From NCBI GenBank assembly GCA_963733055.1, contig CAVTBR010000003.1, forward strand, positions 352,001 to 416,000: 64,000 bases of DNA. The letters are read 5' to 3'. Shown here one piece after another: positions 43,690 to 63,723 of the stretch (the stretch's first letter is position 1; each line of letters begins with the position of its first letter). The notes beneath the pieces were generated by a model. That model was not told where the DNA came from. It saw nothing but the letters and a program-made list of their open reading frames with translations, and ran no database searches. This DNA is from Candidatus Bathyarchaeota archaeon. GTDB taxonomy: Archaea; Thermoproteota; Bathyarchaeia; 40CM-2-53-6. Position numbers and translations under genes: made by a program.

Positions 43690-45405
43690 TCAGTGCCTTT
43701 TCAGGACCGTCCTCAACTTCGTTAATGGCATCGTGTTGATAACGTCGTTTCGGCTCAACCAACCTCTTCGAGCGATACCGATCCCGAACCGAATGTTCCG
43801 TAGTTCAGCTGTATCGTGAGCGTCTGTGTTTATGATCAGTTTGCACCCCCCCTTCAAGGCCAGTTTGGCGTTCGCGTCGTCTAGGTCGAGTCGATGGGGG
43901 GACGAGTTTATTTCAAGATAGGTTCCGGTTCGTTTCGAAGCCTCGAAAAGTTCATCGAAATCGATTTCAGATGGGTTCTTTTCGTTTATCTTTCTGCTCG
44001 TTGGATGACCGATGATGTTTACGAGCCCGGTTTCCATCGTCGTGATTAAGCGTTGAGTCATCTCCTTTTTCGATTGTTTGAATGTTCCATGTATGCTCGC
44101 CACAACTAGATCTAACTCCTTTAGGACAGATTCTACTCCCTTCAATGTCCCGTCGGGTGCAATGTCGACTTCAGCACCTTTTAGAACGGTAATGCCCTCT
44201 AGTTTTCCGTTTACTTTGTCTATCTCTTTCGATTGCTCGCGCAACCGCTCCTCGTTGAGTCCGTTGACGATAGGCATTGTGCTGTAGTGGTCGGTGATCG
44301 CGACGTATGAATAACCCAGGGTTTTCGCGGCTTGAGCCATCTCTTCGATAGTCTGCTGGCCATCACTCCACTTCGTGTGCATCTGTAGATCCCCCTGAAT
44401 CGCGTCATAGGGAATCAGATCCGGCAGATCATGGTTCTTTGCTGCCTCTACTTCTCCTCGATCCTCCCTGAGTTCTGGTGGAATGTAGTCGAGCCCGAGT
44501 TTCTTGTACACTTCCTCCTCGGTGCGGCCCGCCACTGGCTCGTTGCCTTTGAACAAGCCATACTCGCTGAGCTTGAGACCTTTGGAGATGGCGAGTTTTC
44601 TTAGGGCTATGTTATGATCCTTCGACCCGGTGAAGTACATCAATGCCGTGCCGAAGCTCTGTTCGTCTACGATGCGAAGATCTACCTGAAGGTTGCTTTG
44701 TAGAAAGATTGAGGACTTTGTTTTCCCTTTTTCGAGAACCTTTCGAACATCCGACATACTGGTGAAAGCTTCAGATAATTGAGTCGGGTGGAGCGAGGTT
44801 GCGAGAATGTCGATGTCGCCGATGGTTTCCTTCATTCTTCGCAAGGACCCAGCCGCTTCGACCTGGGCTGTCTCCGCCTTCTTGTTGCCACGTAAGTGCT
44901 TGCATATTTCCTCAGCAACCGGAAACGCGTCCCCGAGTAGTATGCGAGCTTTGCTCCTTTTGGCGAGTTCGATGCTGCTGAGTATGTTCTCTTCAGTCTT
45001 CGGCCCTAACCGTTTGATCTCTCTAATTCTATGTTCCTTTGCTGCTCGTTCGAGATCATCTAAGGATTTTATTCCCAACCTCTTGAAAAGCACAGCCGCA
45101 GTCTTTGGCCCAATTCCTTCCACGGCCAATATGCCCTCCAAATCCATTGGCGTCTTTGCCTTGAGTTCGTCACGATACTTCAGTGAGCCAGTTTCGATTA
45201 TCTCTCCTATCTTCTTGGCGATAGCCTCGCCTACACCAGGCAGTTCTTCGAGTTTGCCTTTCGCGAACACTTCTTCTATCGGCTCTCCAAGTGATTCTAT
45301 GGTCCGCGCGGCTCGACGGTATGCGCGGGGTTTGAACTCGACGCCCTGCATATCGAGCATATCAGCGACTTCGTTCAGGATCTGGGCTACGAGCTGGTTC
45401 TTCAT
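43690..45405 (-). CDS. polX: DNA polymerase X / PHP-domain 3'-5' exonuclease
   Basis: AYRRAA, LPGVGEAIAKKI HhH, AGSLRR..ETIGDIDIL, FTGSKDHN, PHP domain TDH, HPT, NTDAH. Confidence 0.96.
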   Translation of the reverse strand: MKNQLVAQILNEVADMLDMQGVEFKPRAYRRAARTIESLGEPIEEVFAKGKLEELPGVGEAIAKKIGEIIETGSLKYRDELKAKTPMDLEGILAVEGIGPKTAAVLFKRLGIKSLDDLERAAKEHRIREIKRLGPKTEENILSSIELAKRSKARILLGDAFPVAEEICKHLRGNKKAETAQVEAAGSLRRMKETIGDIDILATSLHPTQLSEAFTSMSDVRKVLEKGKTKSSIFLQSNLQVDLRIVDEQSFGTALMYFTGSKDHNIALRKLAISKGLKLSEYGLFKGNEPVAGRTEEEVYKKLGLDYIPPELREDRGEVEAAKNHDLPDLIPYDAIQGDLQMHTKWSDGQQTIEEMAQAAKTLGYSYVAITDHYSTMPIVNGLNEERLREQSKEIDKVNGKLEGITVLKGAEVDIAPDGTLKGVESVLKELDLVVASIHGTFKQSKKEMTQRLITTMETGLVNIIGHPTSRKINEKNPSEIDFDELFEASKRTGTYLEINSSPHRLDLDDANAKLALKGGCKLIINTDAHDTAELRNIRFGIGIARRGWLSRNDVINTMPLTKLRTVLKRH

Positions 45406-45544
45406 CCCGTCGACAACGCCTTGTTCGAATTATGATGGGAACACTGTTTTTTGTGTTCCGTCCTCGACCGTGAAGCTACCTTTCGAATAGACTATACAGA
45501 AGTAAGCGACCCTACATGTCTTAGTGAACCCAGAAGGATAGATC

Positions 45545-46405
45545 TTGTATTCTGGCCCTGCAGACATTAGAAACGTAGTAAAAGCGCGAGGCCGGTGTTC
45601 GTCTAAGAGAGACTTCGGATCCCTGCTAATCATAGGTGGTAGTGAAGTCTATTCTGGCGCCCCAGCCTTGGCTGGAATGGCCGCCTTGAGGACGGGGGTC
45701 GGTTTGGCGATTATCGCCGCACCGCGATCCGTTGCTCCAACCATACGCGGATATTCCCCAAACCTCATTGTGCATGCACTTAACAGCGACGTAGTTAGCC
45801 CTGAACAGACCACGCAACTCTCTAAGCTACTTGAAGCCTCTGACGCTCTAGTCTTGGGCCCCGGCATCGGAAGGGCACCCGAAACCGTTCAAGCAATCCC
45901 CCTGATCACCAAGGAAGCCCGCAAATTAGGCAAGCCACTGCTAATCGACGCCGATGCAATCCGAGCACTCACCCAATCAATGGAATCGCTCAACGGCACG
46001 CTAATCACACCTCACGCCGGCGAATTCAAAGCAATCTCAGGAAAGGAAGCACCTCAACTTGAGGGCGATAGGCTGGCTGTTTGCATGAAGTTCGCCAAGG
46101 AACACGCTTGCGTCCTTCTTCTGAAAGGCCACGACACCATTGTTACGGACGGAGTCCGTGCAAAGGTCAACCACACCGGAAACCCTGGAATGGCGACCGC
46201 CGGGACGGGGGACGTTCTATCGGGGATAATCGGCGCCTTGCTGGCACAGCGTGTCGATCTATTCTCAGCGGCCGTTGCGGGGGCTTACATTCATGGGGCG
46301 GCGGGCGACCTGGTTTACAGACATAAGGGATTCCACATGCTCGCTACCGACCTCACTGAAGCCCTCCCCGCCGTTCTTAGAAAATACGATCGCGTGAGAA
46401 GGTAG
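45545..46405 (+). CDS. nnrD: ADP-dependent NAD(P)H-hydrate dehydratase
   Basis: IIGGSEVYSGAP, GPGIG, IDADA, ITPHAGEF, LLKG, MATAGTGDVLSG. Confidence 0.95.
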   Translation: MYSGPADIRNVVKARGRCSSKRDFGSLLIIGGSEVYSGAPALAGMAALRTGVGLAIIAAPRSVAPTIRGYSPNLIVHALNSDVVSPEQTTQLSKLLEASDALVLGPGIGRAPETVQAIPLITKEARKLGKPLLIDADAIRALTQSMESLNGTLITPHAGEFKAISGKEAPQLEGDRLAVCMKFAKEHACVLLLKGHDTIVTDGVRAKVNHTGNPGMATAGTGDVLSGIIGALLAQRVDLFSAAVAGAYIHGAAGDLVYRHKGFHMLATDLTEALPAVLRKYDRVRR

Positions 46406-46578
46406 CCCGCTTCTTCAAATGAAAATCAAGGCGTAATACATCCTTCTTTTCGGTGCCTTTACCGGGGAAAACTAGTGGCAATCTAGTTAGGGGTCGGGAT
46501 TGTGGAGGTTCACACGCGCGCCATGACCGGCGACCACGCCTAGGGACCGTCAACGTTCTCGGCATCCCCGCCCTATGG

Positions 46579-47003
46579 GAAACGAGGGTGTAGCACACCG
46601 TGTGCTACACCGTGATTTTCGCCTGAGAGACGCCCTGAAAACAGGGGTGTAAGTCACAGTGACTTACACCATGATTTCGGCTAGAGGGGTGGTTTCTACC
46701 GGTGAATGCGCACGGGTCTAAGCAGCCAGGCAACGAACTGGGAAACAGTTCAGCGAAACTGTGGCGCAGTTGAACCATCAAGTGAGAGTACGTGGAAAAA
46801 CGAGGGTGAAGGTCACAGTGAAGGTCACCCTGATTTTTCCTCCTGGATCCATCTGGCTGTCGCGAGGTGAGTGAGCGCCACCGTGACCGTCACCCTGCCT
46901 TTTCGGCCGTCCCAGGTAAGAGGGAATATTGTTAGAGATTCGGATCTGGTAAGGCAGTAGGAAGACGAATTGGGATCCGGTTGGTTTCAACTGTGTCCCA
47001 GTT
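46579..47003. repeat. Intergenic array of palindromic units: four GAAA..GGTG-N5-CAC-N-GTG-N5-CACC-.TG.TTT units and three AACTG-N5-CAGTT sites
   Basis: Cores at 46587-46611, 46646-46670 (both perfect 12-bp inverted repeats), 46805-46829, 46870-46894; AACTG-N5-CAGTT at 46736, 46757, 46989. Confidence 0.8.
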
Positions 47004-47044
47004 CAGCCAAAGGTTATACGCCCGCATCCTAATCGCCCGATAAC

Positions 47045-47836
47045 ATGGCTCAGACGATCTTTCACGTTGACGCCTTTGCGGATACGGTGTTTGCTGGCAA
47101 CCCAGCAGGGGTCTGCATCCTACAAGAACCACGTAGTGAGGCTTGGATGCAGAAAGTGGCTCAGGAAATGAACATGTCCGAAACGGCGTTCCTCCACAAG
47201 CGGGGGGACGGGTATGGTTTGCGATGGTTCACGCCGGTAGTCGAGGTTGACCTCTGCGGCCACGCAACCCTCGCGAGCGCACACATCCTCTGGGAGACGG
47301 GATTACTCGGGATTGAGGATAAGGCGCGGTTTCATACCCGTAGCGGCCTTCTAACCGCCAAACGGAGAGATGAATGGATCGAGCTCGATTTCCCGTCTCT
47401 ACCCGACAGGCGAGTTGAGGTTCCGAAAGGGTTGGCCAAGGCGATCGGCGTCAAGCCTCGGTATGTGGGAAGAAGCCGGTTCGATTCCATTGTCGAAGTC
47501 AGTTCAGAGAATTCTGTTCGTACAATGAAACCAGACTTCACCCTCCTCTCCAAGCTTCCCATCCGAGGCCTTATCGTGACCGCGAAAGCCAAAACAGAAC
47601 CGTATGATTTCGTCAGTCGCTTCTTCGCCCCACAGGTAGGAATCAACGAGGACCCAGTAACCGGGTCCGCCTACTCAGTCTTGGGGCCGTTCTGGAAGGG
47701 CAGGCTTCACAAGAATGAACTCCTAGCCTACCAGGCTTCAAGGCGAGGTGGTGTGATCCGGGTTAAGGTGGGCGATAGACGGGTGTACATCGGCGGTAAG
47801 GCGGTCACAGTCTTCAAAGCCGAACTAAACGCTTAG
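47045..47836 (+). CDS. PhzF family epimerase/isomerase
   Basis: VDAF...GNPAGV, SETAF, EVDLCGHATLA, EDPVTGSA. Confidence 0.95.
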   Translation: MAQTIFHVDAFADTVFAGNPAGVCILQEPRSEAWMQKVAQEMNMSETAFLHKRGDGYGLRWFTPVVEVDLCGHATLASAHILWETGLLGIEDKARFHTRSGLLTAKRRDEWIELDFPSLPDRRVEVPKGLAKAIGVKPRYVGRSRFDSIVEVSSENSVRTMKPDFTLLSKLPIRGLIVTAKAKTEPYDFVSRFFAPQVGINEDPVTGSAYSVLGPFWKGRLHKNELLAYQASRRGGVIRVKVGDRRVYIGGKAVTVFKAELNA

Positions 47837-47843
47837 ACTCGAT

Positions 47844-48359
47844 TCATCTCCGGTCGAGCGCTTTTCGGTAGATTTCGTAGTCTGATTGTGAAAAACAGAC
47901 AAAGACTACCTCGACATCCGGCATTCCGGCGAGGCATTCGCTGATGGCGTCTTCGGCAATTCTTGAGGCGCGCTCAATCGGGAAACCGTAAGCGCCGGTG
48001 CTTATCGAGGGGAAAGCGATTGTTCGAACTCCATTCTGCTCTGCGAGCTTCATAGAATTCAGGTAGCATTCTCGTAACTGTTGTTCTTCGCCGTTCCCGC
48101 CGCCTTTCCAAATTGGGCCGACAGTGTGGATGACGAAACGGGCGGGCAGTTTGCCGGCTTTGGTTATTTTCGCTTGACCGGTTGGACACCCTCCCAGTTT
48201 GCGGCACTCCTCAAGGAGTTGGGGCCCTGCAGCGCGGTGTATCGCGCCGTCCACGCCACCGCCCCCGAGCAGGGTTGTGTTGGCAGCGTTGACGATTGCG
48301 TCAACCTTCTGCTTGGTAATGTCCCCAAGAACTAGTCGAACCTGTCCCATCCAAACCAA
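47844..48359 (-). CDS. Macro-domain O-acetyl-ADP-ribose deacetylase
   Basis: GDIT, AIVNAAN, GGGGVDGAIH, HTVGP, AFPSISTGAYGFP. Confidence 0.95.
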   Translation of the reverse strand: MVWMGQVRLVLGDITKQKVDAIVNAANTTLLGGGGVDGAIHRAAGPQLLEECRKLGGCPTGQAKITKAGKLPARFVIHTVGPIWKGGGNGEEQQLRECYLNSMKLAEQNGVRTIAFPSISTGAYGFPIERASRIAEDAISECLAGMPDVEVVFVCFSQSDYEIYRKALDRR

Positions 48360-48363
48360 CAGT

Positions 48364-49800
48364 CTACGTGGGCTTCTGGCCGTCGGTTTCGTATCTTATT
48401 GGGTCTTTGAGTCCGTTAATTTCGAATGCCTTGCGCCTCATGTAACAGGGCCCGCACTTTCCGCAGTGCGCTTCTCCACCCTCATAGCAGCTCCATGTGA
48501 GTTGGAGGGGTGCACCTATGTCAATCCCGAGTTTGACGACTTCATGTTTCATCAAATTACCCACAGGCATTTGGAGTGTAACTTTTTTCTGAAGATTTGT
48601 CGCATAGGGTAGAACCTCTCGCAGCTTATTTACGAACATCATTTCGTTATCGGGGTAGGCTCCCGCTTCCTCTAGGTTGTTTCCGAGAGCGATCGTTCCG
48701 AATCCGTGGGCTTCTGCCACACCAGTTGCTATTGCAATGAAGATGAGGTTTCTGGCGGGCACCCATTCATGCGCGAATTCCGCACCGATTTCTCCTTGTT
48801 TCCCAGTTTCAATTTCATCAAACGTTTCCGTTAGGCGAGAATGACCTATCGCCTTCTTGAACAGATCAGTATCGACAATGATTAGTTCAGTTCCCAGGAA
48901 TTTGGCGATGCGTTTGACGCTTTCCTCCTCTCGCTTCGCTGCGCGTTGTCCATACTTGATGTGTAGCAATGCAACATCGTAACCGTCATCGATCATGACC
49001 TTGGCTGCTGTCGTGCTATCCAGTCCGGCACTGCAGATCACGAGAGCCCTCCGTGCACTCTCATCGTTCTTCCAAAGGGAAAGTCGCTCCTCATTCTTGG
49101 TGGTGTCGACTGTGAGTAGAGAATACGGTTCCATCTGCCTAACGACTTTCGAATCCCAGATGGGCTTCTCGGCCTGCCCGAGGTATGATTCCAGCGACGT
49201 GAAGAACAAGACGTCAAATTCGTCATCGTATTCAAGGAAGATAGGTTTGTAGTTGCAGGCCAAGAATATCTTGGAGGGTTGTCCCGCGTCGACGATCGCC
49301 AAGGCATAGCTGCCTAAAAGTTCGTCTCGGAGAATCTTTTGTAACCCGACCGCCGTCTTATCCCAGGTCTTCTCGAGCAGAGGTGGGATGATTGCGCTGT
49401 CGATTTTAGTTCGTCGAATGAGACCGTATTTTCTTTCGAGGTCATAATCGTTTGCGATTATGCCATTGTGCGTAACGTAGATCGTTGACCCGAAAGGTTG
49501 GATGTCTTCACTCCGTTTCTTGGGGACATACTCAGTGGTGGGTTCGGCTCGGTCATTATTCAAGACGATTAGCGTTTCGGGGTAGATGAAGCGACCATGA
49601 CTATTGAGCGACGCGGTTGGCCGTCCAATATCTTTGATTTGATCTAACTTTCCATTTCTTTGGAACGCCACGATTCCATAAGAATCCCGTCCACGATCCT
49701 CACCCCGAAGGATAAGAGAACGGACTTTGGCTTCAATCGCTGCCAACTCCGCTTCCGAACGAAGCCTTTCGAAGATTACACACCCCGCAATACTACACAT
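48364..49800 (-). CDS. queC: GAT-QueC: class II glutamine amidotransferase fused to 7-cyano-7-deazaguanine synthase
   Basis: N-terminal Cys (MCSIAG), RGRDSYG, RAEPTTE, HNGII; QueC SAGLDS, VPARNL, YPD, SCY..CGKCGPC. Confidence 0.93.
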   Translation of the reverse strand: MCSIAGCVIFERLRSEAELAAIEAKVRSLILRGEDRGRDSYGIVAFQRNGKLDQIKDIGRPTASLNSHGRFIYPETLIVLNNDRAEPTTEYVPKKRSEDIQPFGSTIYVTHNGIIANDYDLERKYGLIRRTKIDSAIIPPLLEKTWDKTAVGLQKILRDELLGSYALAIVDAGQPSKIFLACNYKPIFLEYDDEFDVLFFTSLESYLGQAEKPIWDSKVVRQMEPYSLLTVDTTKNEERLSLWKNDESARRALVICSAGLDSTTAAKVMIDDGYDVALLHIKYGQRAAKREEESVKRIAKFLGTELIIVDTDLFKKAIGHSRLTETFDEIETGKQGEIGAEFAHEWVPARNLIFIAIATGVAEAHGFGTIALGNNLEEAGAYPDNEMMFVNKLREVLPYATNLQKKVTLQMPVGNLMKHEVVKLGIDIGAPLQLTWSCYEGGEAHCGKCGPCYMRRKAFEINGLKDPIRYETDGQKPT

Positions 49801-62472: not shown

Positions 62473-63723
62473 ATGCCGACGGTAGGGGCTGTCGTTCAAT
62501 TGTCTTCCGACATCGTTAAAGAGACTTTAGAGAGGCCAACAGTTTTCAAGGACGAAACACCCCTTTCGTTGGAGTTCATACCCCGCAACCTTCCTCACCG
62601 CGACGATCAGATGCGGTTCCTAACACAACTCTTCCGTTTTTCCCTCGACAGCCCATTCTCCACAAGCCAACGAGTTCTGATCACGGGCGATGTGGGAACT
62701 GGGAAGACGGTTTTAGCCCAACGCTTCGGCACAGACCTAGTTAAGGCTGCGAGGGCGAGAAAGGTCAATCTCCATTATGTTCACGTCAACTGCCGCGAAG
62801 CGAAAGGCAGCCTCTTCATGATCATCAAACGAGTTCTAACGCAGTTCGAGCCAGAGTTTCCGAAACGCGGCTTCGCACCCGAAGAACTTCTTCACACCCT
62901 AATGGACATGCTTGACGACAAAAACATACACCTCATACTTGCTCTAGACGAGGTTGAACACCTGATCAGGGTGGAAGAGTCAACTCCCATCTACAACCTA
63001 ACTCGTATCCAAGAGGAACGAGTTGGAAAGCCCCCTCGCCTTTCACTCATTTTCATTCTCCGCGAACTCGAATACCTACAAAAACTGGACAGAAGCACTA
63101 TCGATACCTTGCAAAGAAACATCGTCAAACTCGACAAATACAATTCCCGCCAACTAATCGATATACTCCAAGCCCGCATCAGTTTAGCTTTCAAAGAGAA
63201 CACGGTAGCCGACGAAGCCCTCGAACTTGTCGCCGATGTAGGAGGGCAGAGTGGCGACGCTCGATATGCCATAGAACTTCTCTGGCGGGCAGGAAAGTAT
63301 GCGGATTCAGAACCTTCGAAGCGAGTTCTCACCGAACATGTTCGCAAGGCTGCCGGAAGCGTTTACCCCATGCTACGCGGCGAATACATTGCCGCACTAT
63401 CCTCACACGAAAAATTCATGCTACTAGCCTTAGCAAGGACACTTGAGGAGTCGGAAGAAGCCTACGCCAACATCGGAACCGTTGAACGCGAATACAAAGC
63501 CGTCTGCGAGGAATACAGCGACAAACCCAGAAAACACACCCAAATCTGGAAATACGCACGCGGTTTAAGCGCCATAGGCGTCATAGCCGCTTCAAAATCA
63601 GGCGAAGGCGTCCGCGGCAAAACAACCCTACTCGGTCTACAGAACATACCCGCCTCCAAAATGCGTGAACAATTAGAGGCCGCACTGGCGGCCACGAGCA
63701 AAAAGCGGCCCCAACGAAAGTAA
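62473..63723 (+). CDS. cdc6: Orc1/Cdc6 replication initiation protein
   Basis: FIPRNLPHR, GDVGTGKT, HVNC, LALDE, GDARYAI, C-terminal wHTH GVRGKTT. Confidence 0.96.
   Translation: MPTVGAVVQLSSDIVKETLERPTVFKDETPLSLEFIPRNLPHRDDQMRFLTQLFRFSLDSPFSTSQRVLITGDVGTGKTVLAQRFGTDLVKAARARKVNLHYVHVNCREAKGSLFMIIKRVLTQFEPEFPKRGFAPEELLHTLMDMLDDKNIHLILALDEVEHLIRVEESTPIYNLTRIQEERVGKPPRLSLIFILRELEYLQKLDRSTIDTLQRNIVKLDKYNSRQLIDILQARISLAFKENTVADEALELVADVGGQSGDARYAIELLWRAGKYADSEPSKRVLTEHVRKAAGSVYPMLRGEYIAALSSHEKFMLLALARTLEESEEAYANIGTVEREYKAVCEEYSDKPRKHTQIWKYARGLSAIGVIAASKSGEGVRGKTTLLGLQNIPASKMREQLEAALAATSKKRPQRK

Follow-up and report, generated by a model that had tools for sequence, protein, structure and literature searches.

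A dispersed mosaic repeat in a Bathyarchaeota genome shares its palindromic modules with small-terminase-like genes of resident viruses

Introduction

What is the array of palindromes that separates the gene nnrD from a PhzF-family gene in the genome of a Candidatus Bathyarchaeota archaeon? The 64,000-nucleotide stretch in which the array lies, referred to here as the window, is C3:352001-416000 of the source genome, G000 (2.88 Mb in three contigs, C1-C3). A preliminary description of the window recorded four units of about 42 bp built from TG-N5-CA palindromes, and offered for them a series of roles that ranged from a guide-like RNA array to an origin of replication. Dispersed palindromic repeats are well known in bacteria, and in the literature that we searched we found no description of such repeats in Bathyarchaeia. 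We also know of no repeat family that shares its building blocks with a recognition cassette in a viral small-terminase gene.

Here we report that the array consists of two tandem copies of a mosaic repeat which entered this gap as a lineage-specific insertion, and that readings of it as an origin, guide array or gene find no support. The repeat belongs to an undescribed archaeal family that has its modules in common with a candidate packaging-recognition cassette, located in the small-terminase-like (terS) genes of resident viruses. Positions given without a contig prefix are those of the window, and features lie on the plus strand unless stated otherwise.

Results

The gap between nnrD, which encodes an NAD(P)H-hydrate dehydratase (45545..46405; Pfam PF01256, E = 2.6e-56), and the PhzF-family gene (47045..47836; Pfam PF02567, E = 8.4e-65) does contain the array, as first reported, but measures 639 bp (46406-47044) rather than 640 bp. 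Units of the larger type, here called A units, have the core GGTG-N5-CAC-N-GTG-N5-CACC, which is exact at 46587-46611, 46646-46670 and 46805-46829 and has one mismatch at 46870-46894, giving spacings of 59, 159 and 65 bp. The pattern GGTGNNNNNCACNGTGNNNNNCACC, with at most one mismatch allowed, has four matches in the window against a shuffle mean of 0.02, and none of 100 shuffles reached four. The cores are flanked by an A-run on the left and a TGATTT-type sequence on the right, such that the whole unit is an imperfect palindrome of ~45 bp. The preliminary description proved accurate in the places of the four units, the 59- and 65-bp spacings, the N5 pairs, the degenerate left flank of the fourth unit and three AACTG-N5-CAGTT sites. 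It was also right that a fixed scaffold with two variable five-base slots is neither a CRISPR array, nor an attC site, nor a classic repetitive extragenic palindromic (REP) sequence: in place of the identical direct repeats and constant unique spacers of a CRISPR there are differing units at the three spacings above, and G000 has no Cas1.

The AACTG-N5-CAGTT sites, here called B sites, start at 46736, 46757 and 46989. A fourth, weaker site of this type (AATTG-GGATC-CGGTT, 46968-46982) lies 21 bp ahead of the last of these, and the B sites of the window are thus arranged as two pairs with 21 bp from one start to the next. Common to both unit types is the TG-N5-CA building block, an 11-bp module that is held in a fixed frame (GGTG..CAC or AACTG..CAGTT) and occurs in either orientation, so that a unit may pair an N5 word with its inverted complement, with a direct repeat of itself or with a different word. 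Modules are phased at 12 bp inside A units, always at 21 bp in B pairs, and at 21-24 bp in the terS pairs described below.

The modules of the gap are laid out as two tandem copies of one element, in which one or two A units are followed by a conserved spacer and a pair of AACTG-N5-CAGTT sites 21 bp apart. The first copy (46573..46845; A1, A2, spacer, B1-B2, tail, A3) is one of three near-identical copies that blastn and nhmmer identified in the genome. It opens with A unit 1 (46577..46621; GGGAAAC-GAGGGTG-TAGCA-CAC-C-GTG-TGCTA-CACC-GTGATTTTCG), whose N5 words are inverted complements, and A unit 2 (46637..46680; GAAAAC-AGGGGTG-TAAGT-CAC-A-GTG-ACTTA-CACC-ATGATTTCGG), the core of which recurs in the related genome G019. 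These are followed by a conserved, non-palindromic spacer of ~55 bp (46681..46735; consensus GAGGGGnGGnTTCTGCTnGTGATT..GCACnGG..AGCAGGGAACGA), by B pair 1 (46736..46771; AACTG-GGAAA-CAGTT and AACTG-TGGCG-CAGTT), by a conserved tail, GAACCATCAAGTGAGAGTACGT (46772..46793), that recurs behind B pairs at C1:1079.7k, C1:716.5k and C1:296.4k, and by A unit 3 (46794..46840; GGAAAAAC-GAGGGTG-AAGGT-CAC-A-GTG-AAGGT-CACC-CTGATTTTTCC). The direct words AAGGT/AAGGT of unit 3 are present as described, but the second module is a local tandem duplication of 12-13 bp, because the sister copies on C1 and C2, which are 13 and 11 bases shorter than the window copy, carry a single GTGAAGGTCAC module there.

The second copy (46850..47008) is diverged, aligns with the other copies, and was matched by nhmmer at C3:398875-399009 (window 46875-47009) to positions 82-208 of a profile built from the three near-identical copies. 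It consists of A unit 4 (46860..46906; AGTG-AGCGC-CAC-C-GTG-ACCGT-CACC-CTGCCTTTTCGG), of which the word ACCGT is found in units of G019 as well, the spacer, and B pair 2 (46968..47003; AATTG-GGATC-CGGTT and AACTG-TGTCC-CAGTT), a pair type that is also present at C3:748426 and C1:540589. B pair 2 ends 4 bp ahead of CAAAGGTTATAC (47008..47019), a conserved box resembling a transcription factor B recognition element (BRE) and TATA box, which lies outside the repeat, is kept upstream of PhzF in G019, G013, G016, G022 and G011 with or without an array, and is probably the PhzF promoter.

The array stretch is part of a dispersed, non-coding mosaic repeat family. Window 46573-46845 recurs at C1:1277016-1277277 (91% identity) and C2:236467-236726 (89%), and units 1-3 with the first B pair thus make up an element of ~250 bp present in three copies. 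The three-copy profile also recovers the diverged second copy inside the window and about eight weaker copies (C2:97.6k, C1:540.6k, C1:296.4k, C1:1079.7k, C1:716.5k, C1:631.4k, C3:748.4k and C1:634.7k), and G000 has at least 12 loci of array type. Seven copies, one of them from G019, share an aligned plan of A unit, non-palindromic spacer, B pair and short tail; the near-identical copies differ by indels of 13, 11 and 7 bases. B pairs with up to two mismatches number 12 in G000 against 0-1 in three shuffled genomes; single GTG-N5-CAC modules show no genome-wide enrichment (420 versus ~700), and it is therefore the clusters, not lone modules, that are special. The genes beside the copies are ordinary and mutually unrelated (SRP54, a zinc-ribbon protein, MetK, a CBS protein with a helix-turn-helix (HTH), thermosome, peroxiredoxin, RimK, ICMT and others). 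The repeat thus has the short imperfect palindromes, intergenic and clustered as mosaics, of REP sequences and bacterial interspersed mosaic elements (BIMEs), and a motif without other occurrences or conservation, the outcome that the preliminary description named as refuting, is not what we found, since dispersed copies exist in G000 and modules exist in relatives and metagenomes. A small CopG-like gene of the ribbon-helix-helix (RHH) type (C1:540706-541164; L029) starts ~60 bp from one diverged copy and reads away from it; its product could be a reader of the modules, or its position a coincidence.

Comparison with relatives dates the arrays to individual lineages. For PhzF, 13 of the 17 loci fetched from the genus were read, and for the MetK-CBS gene pair, which flanks the C2 copy, six of 12. 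In G013, G016 and G022, nnrD lies directly upstream of PhzF with a gap of ~55-125 bp and no module. The G013 gap (~125 bp) contains the segments ...CCATGACCAG and CAAAGGTTATACG, which match window 46523-46532 and 47008-47019, and this places the insert of G000, the whole array of ~475 bp, at ~46533-47008 (46533..47008), with the conserved left portion of the gap on one side and the promoter-like box of PhzF on the other. The corresponding gap of G019 also holds an array, but its words differ, it points the other way and it entered the gap at a different position, and the remaining PhzF loci read lack synteny with the G000 locus. The MetK-CBS gap is short in five relatives, and in G000 it holds ~590 extra bases, including the C2 copy, which begin ~21 nt downstream of the old TATA box; the only repeat shared by the two ends of this insert is ATTCC/TATTCC. 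Short, array-free gaps within these two gene pairs, nnrD-PhzF and MetK-CBS, in sister species mark the arrays as lineage-specific insertions, and both gaps offer the filled and empty sites in close relatives by which MITEs (miniature inverted-repeat transposable elements) are recognised. At its right end, the MetK-CBS insert (C2:236361-237034; L002, L132) carries an AT-rich box, GAGAATAATAAC, at the distance from the start codon of the displaced original TATA box, and this box may be a replacement promoter delivered by the insert.

In a survey of 59 genomes of the taxonomic family, only G000 (10 places) and G019 (11) have the double-module pattern in any number; it occurs two to three times in G062, G071, G068 and a few others, and most genomes have 0-1, the level of the reversed-pattern control. 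The TAGCA palindrome has one exact match in the genome collection, in a Bathyarchaeota metagenome-assembled genome, and an identical palindrome is present in G068, which belongs to another genus. A query of public sequencing runs with the array words listed no RNA run and one soil DNA run with a small share.

An exact scan of metagenome contigs with the A-unit frame returned 33 loci, ~7 of which look like chance matches in GC-rich genes. Sixteen of the 33 units have two unrelated words and four have direct words; with respect to nearby genes, 5 and 6 loci lie at 3′ ends versus 6 and 6 at 5′ starts, which amounts to no 3′-end bias. Thirteen loci (eight distinct sites; among L097-L127) form a single subfamily with the words CAATA/TATTG, an element of 174-176 bp whose ends are sharp, whose terminal inverted repeats measure ~38 bp and whose centre is occupied by the A unit. 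Its target duplications are clean, at 14-16 bp, in five of the eight sites, imperfect in two, and absent at one truncated copy. One copy carries a symmetric double change to CAATG/CATTG. A separate contig (L103) has a single A unit with direct TAGCA/TAGCA words, ~50 nt after the 3′ end of an apparent tRNA gene.

The modules of the repeat are shared with a viral gene. A 179-codon open reading frame (ORF; C1:296057-296596) contains a diverged B pair and overlaps the beginning of a large-terminase gene (terL; Terminase_6N; PHROG terminase large subunit, E = 3e-40). Its 179-residue product has a homologue in G014, whose gene is followed by those for terL, portal, scaffold and major head protein, an order that puts the small protein in the small-terminase position of a head-tailed provirus. 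The G014 region concerned (L094, G014:C4:86500-106499) appears to be a complete head-tail provirus module, with the terS-like gene, a terL split into two ORFs, and the portal, scaffold and major head genes. The terS-like family comprises 75 members, all unnamed and without Pfam domains.

When 12 terS-like genes were read at the DNA level, at least two TG-N5-CA modules were found within ~60 bp after the putative RHH part in nine of them; the genes share ~20-35% identity and keep the module pair at the same place. The words differ from gene to gene: GGGTG-TCAGA-CACCC twice in G014, ACCTC and ACAGT in G018 and G021, TATTC and GAATA in G073, TATCC twice in G019, AGCCA twice in G000 at C1:1494.5k, the B pair in G000 at 296k, a complete A unit with GAAAAC and TTTTG flanks in G074, and two A units in a truncated gene of G065. 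Of the other three genes, two have a different 12-bp inverted repeat and one has nothing; the G015 terS has a linker of equal length without modules. Within seven terS-bearing regions of 14-20 kb, modules occur only in terS, four regions having the terS modules alone and three none, so the cassette, and not the window array, has the repeated words in or near terS, unique in the viral genome, that mark a pac site. One 11-base word is read in two frames within the G019 gene (KGVSQSPGGVYPTL), and the G074 unit is read in another frame than the G014 unit. Since module words are read in differing frames, the terS signal lies in the DNA and not in the protein. The dispersed copies and the terS genes also meet in individual words, as at C1:1279.4k, where the CGATG/CATTG pair is identical to the terS pair at 296k.

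G000 has three terL genes (C1:294673-296596, C1:1492680-1494704 and C1:924115-926203; L022, L048, L049); a small RHH-like gene lies ahead of the first two at least. The islands around them carry CHAT/ThiF or PIN/RHH toxin-antitoxin genes, no recognised portal or capsid gene lies near any of the three, and genome-wide searches for the HK97 capsid (PF05065) and portal (PF04860) families found none. The islands may be provirus remnants or parts of satellites.

Discussion

The results leave little doubt about what the array is as DNA, and the question becomes what its modules are for. We tentatively favour, at somewhat less than an even chance, a BIME/MITE-like mosaic repeat whose modules would be binding words for terminase-type RHH proteins. 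Orientable modules, fixed phasing and survival in coding DNA in changing frames are together the behaviour of sub-sites for a dimeric DNA-binding protein, and RHH proteins are known to read direct or inverted sub-sites. On the analogy of pac and cosB sites, the candidate reader would be the putative RHH domain that is encoded just upstream of the terS module cassette, the fixed TG..CA frame providing a general fit and the N5 word setting which protein variant binds. On these terms the window array would be a cluster of pac-like words, spread round the chromosome by a BIME/MITE-like repeat, and its candidate consequences would include initiation of packaging of host DNA, a decoy for terminase, an effect on the PhzF promoter, or none. 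Among the roles proposed at the outset, a centromere-like site came nearest to this reading in being a DNA site bound by protein, although it missed both the dispersed nature of the repeat and the modules in viral terS genes.

A number of observations weigh against the assignment to RHH terminases, beginning with the protein itself. The terS-like proteins match no Pfam or PHROG family, and Foldseek against the PDB returned only generic helical bundles. At their N-terminus RHH_1 is sub-threshold in 11 of 36 members (best E = 0.0058), and a PDB sequence profile search gave weak rows for Arc, CopG and EndoAI (E = 0.1-1). The AlphaFold model, with a mean predicted local distance difference test (pLDDT) score of 73.6, has a beta-alpha-alpha start, a poorly defined linker and a helical bundle, and it is on this beta-alpha-alpha pattern and the sub-threshold matches that the RHH assignment rests.

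The shared vocabulary is also open to challenge. Of the 11 canonical terS words, seven are found again among the dispersed units of G000 and G019, where a uniform draw would give 0.73, a comparison in which words were read by eye, the null model is uniform and one match joins an A-type to a B-type word. The window A words TAAGT, AAGGT, AGCGC and ACCGT are in no terS gene of G000, and the only window A word that matches a terS is TAGCA, in G065, which is of another genus. The association between terS and the repeat is partial across genomes, given that G018, G021, G014, G073 and G074 have the terS with 0-1 double units, and that G062 has units with no terS match. Exact scans of 2.9 million viral contigs, one each for the TAGCA and TAAGT palindromes and one for the general A-unit frame, gave no match.

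The mobility of the repeat in G000 has its own difficulties. The three near-identical copies have no target duplications and no terminal repeats. In the G000 assembly, which is 96% complete, the Y1 transposase family PF01797, to which control genomes respond, had no match and no Cas1 was found, Y1 and Cas1 being the only transposase families searched. Finally, the palindrome-preserving changes, CAATA/TATTG to CAATG/CATTG in the metagenomic subfamily and CAC.GTG to CAT.ATG at C1:1277334, fit a hairpin as well as they fit a symmetric protein site.

A bolder version of the reading, which we regard as rather doubtful, holds that the arrays are libraries of packaging-site look-alikes, in which every N5 word would address the RHH small terminase of another Bathyarchaeia virus, several addresses being gathered in one place by a mobile repeat. 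The repeat and the host DNA beside it could then be packaged into virions and carried to new cells, as a transposable element hitch-hiking on transduction. Alternatively, the look-alikes could act as decoys that draw terminase off viral DNA.

Of the competing explanations, the one with most to be said for it, though we consider it unlikely, is a purely selfish REP/BIME- or MITE-like palindromic repeat without a binding partner of its own, in which case the modules in terS would be in-frame invasions of a tolerant linker. Copies that are dispersed and intergenic with no preferred gene side, arrays that are insertion polymorphisms, a subfamily that is a clean MITE, and the complete A unit, flanks included, in the G074 terS are all as such a repeat would have them. 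Random invasion would not lead one to expect the fixed position after the RHH part in nine of 12 terS-like genes, nor that this is the sole such site in each provirus region. The equally long linker of the G015 terS, which lacks modules, indicates that the modules are not simple insertions, and G000 has no gene for a Y1 REP-associated tyrosine transposase (RAYT) or Cas1 to move such a repeat.

An element acting at the RNA level, with transcript hairpins serving as bidirectional terminators, stabilisers of mRNA or a small-RNA family, is in our view improbable, although folding provides some encouragement. Both strands of the array fold far better than shuffles (z = -5.0 and -4.9), A1 on the plus strand and A2 on the minus strand score as terminator-like hairpins with a T run, compensatory changes are present, and mismatches are G.T rather than A.C on the sense strand in unit 1 of the C1 and C2 copies and in the B pairs at 296k and 1279k. 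The C2 copy, at ~21 nt downstream of the old TATA box, may moreover be transcribed as a leader. Against this, the consensus fold of seven copies is weak (-15.4 kcal/mol) with a positive, that is unfavourable, covariation term, and in 20 of the 33 metagenome units the words are unable to pair, whereby the long stem is lost. No Rfam family matches: a scan of window 44000-49000 with Rfam 15 at E <=10 produced only a chance mir-512 match (E = 4.6) outside the array. There is no conserved promoter upstream of the copies and no bias to the 3′ ends of genes, the G019 array is reversed relative to PhzF, and T runs are missing from most of the pairs inside terS. The structured or guide-like RNA suggested in the preliminary description consequently finds little footing here.

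Operator arrays of a host transcription factor, marking a regulon upstream of promoters and unrelated to viruses, are very improbable. The 4-bp distance between B pair 2 and the BRE/TATA-like box of PhzF would suit an operator, as would the placing of the three young copies, each of which lies upstream of the next gene and points the same way, the 21-bp phasing, which is compatible with cooperative dimers, and the RHH-type gene ~60 bp from the C1:540.6k copy. A regulon is difficult to reconcile with neighbours as unrelated as PhzF, the zinc-ribbon and CBS-HTH proteins, thermosome, peroxiredoxin, RimK and ICMT, with orthologous promoters in sister species that have no sites, and with orientations and gene distances that vary.

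We think it highly improbable that the units are scars of Cas1-driven transposons (casposons), that is, end tips and target duplications left between stacked insertions. The 14-16-bp duplications of the metagenomic MITE are of the size that casposase makes (PMC5137440), but G000 has no Cas1 in its 96% complete assembly and no duplications at its copies, the A unit is central and not terminal in the MITE, and the intervals between the units contain no cassette genes, nnrD being the neighbour of PhzF in relatives. The related proposal of integrase arm-type sites met with no integrase context.

That the array is a replication origin with origin recognition boxes (ORBs) bound by Orc1/Cdc6 is scarcely credible. 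Its appeal lay in GTGGAAAAACGAGGGTG, which presumably bears a loose resemblance to the GGAAAC...GGGGT part of archaeal ORBs, and in a cdc6 gene in the window (62473-63723). That gene is 15.5 kb from the array, GC skew does not switch at 46.6 kb, at least 12 loci of this type occur in the genome, the corresponding gap of G013, G016 and G022 has no array, and the same modules are found inside protein-coding terS genes. The Orc1/Cdc6 gene sits at the end of the window with only ~200 bp upstream of it, in which no ORB-type repeats stood out. The chance of a decayed protein-coding repeat is negligible: open frames of 54-94 codons do run across the array, and the minus strand has HGxxHxxLHPxF-like strings, but the 94-codon frame has no homologue among 5.8 billion proteins, none of five frames has a Pfam match, copies differ by indels of 13, 11 and 7 bases, and at C1:1079.7k the same DNA motif is in two reading frames.

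Known systems resemble the repeat in part. The REP and BIME sequences of enterobacteria are short, imperfect, intergenic palindromes of a few unit types, placed in either orientation with conserved linkers, non-coding, and variable between close relatives. The G000 repeat has the same scattered imperfect palindromes, mosaic units, linkers and variability among relatives; it differs in its archaeal host, in the lack of a Y1/RAYT transposase in G000, in a unit composed of two TG-N5-CA modules that opens with GAAAAC..GGGTG instead of the GTAG-headed stem that we take to typify REP sequences, and in sharing words with a viral terS gene.

Sites for packaging initiation (pac and cosB) lie in or beside terS, as with the pac hexamers in pacA of P1, the cosB R sites of lambda, and the pac sites of P22 and SPP1; they consist of short words that are repeated, take either orientation and occur nowhere else in the viral genome, and they have look-alikes in the host chromosome, such as the pseudo-pac sites of P22. 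The terS cassette is similar in consisting of repeated words within terS that form the sole such site of its region, with look-alikes in the host chromosome. Unlike those sites, it has as its candidate reader an RHH domain rather than an HTH, and the look-alikes on the host side are organised arrays with many different words, not chance matches.

The arrays of operators and centromeres read by RHH proteins, such as the omega heptads of pSM19035 and the ParR/ParG iterons, have direct or inverted sub-sites at fixed phasing that are bound by cooperative RHH dimers. Direct or inverted sub-sites at fixed phasing are found here too, with the differences that the centre of each sub-site is a variable five-base word and that the RHH gene is followed by terL, with no partition ATPase beside it. 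Rickettsia palindromic elements provide a precedent for protein genes whose reading frame runs straight through palindromic repeat DNA, but the intragenic site of the present modules is fixed at one place in one gene family. With MITEs, including mini-casposons, the repeat has in common that it is non-autonomous, and the metagenomic subfamily has the terminal inverted repeats of ~38 bp, sharp ends and target duplications of such elements. It departs from them in that the G000 copies have neither terminal repeats nor duplications, that there is no Cas1, and that the subfamily duplications, at 14-16 bp, exceed the 2-10 bp described as usual for MITEs (PMC11602168).

If the modules are words for terminase-type RHH proteins, they would represent a compact recognition code, consisting of a fixed TG..CA frame and a five-base address. 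Such a code would offer a way into the question of how uncultured archaeal viruses select the DNA that they package, and would suggest a route by which host DNA beside the repeats could be mobilised. Should the modules prove to be something else, the locus would remain an inserted repeat rather than an origin, guide array or gene, and a MITE with target duplications of casposon size will still have been flagged.

One further gene lies close to the locus: just upstream of nnrD, on the minus strand, the window encodes a family X DNA polymerase with a PHP domain (43690-45405).

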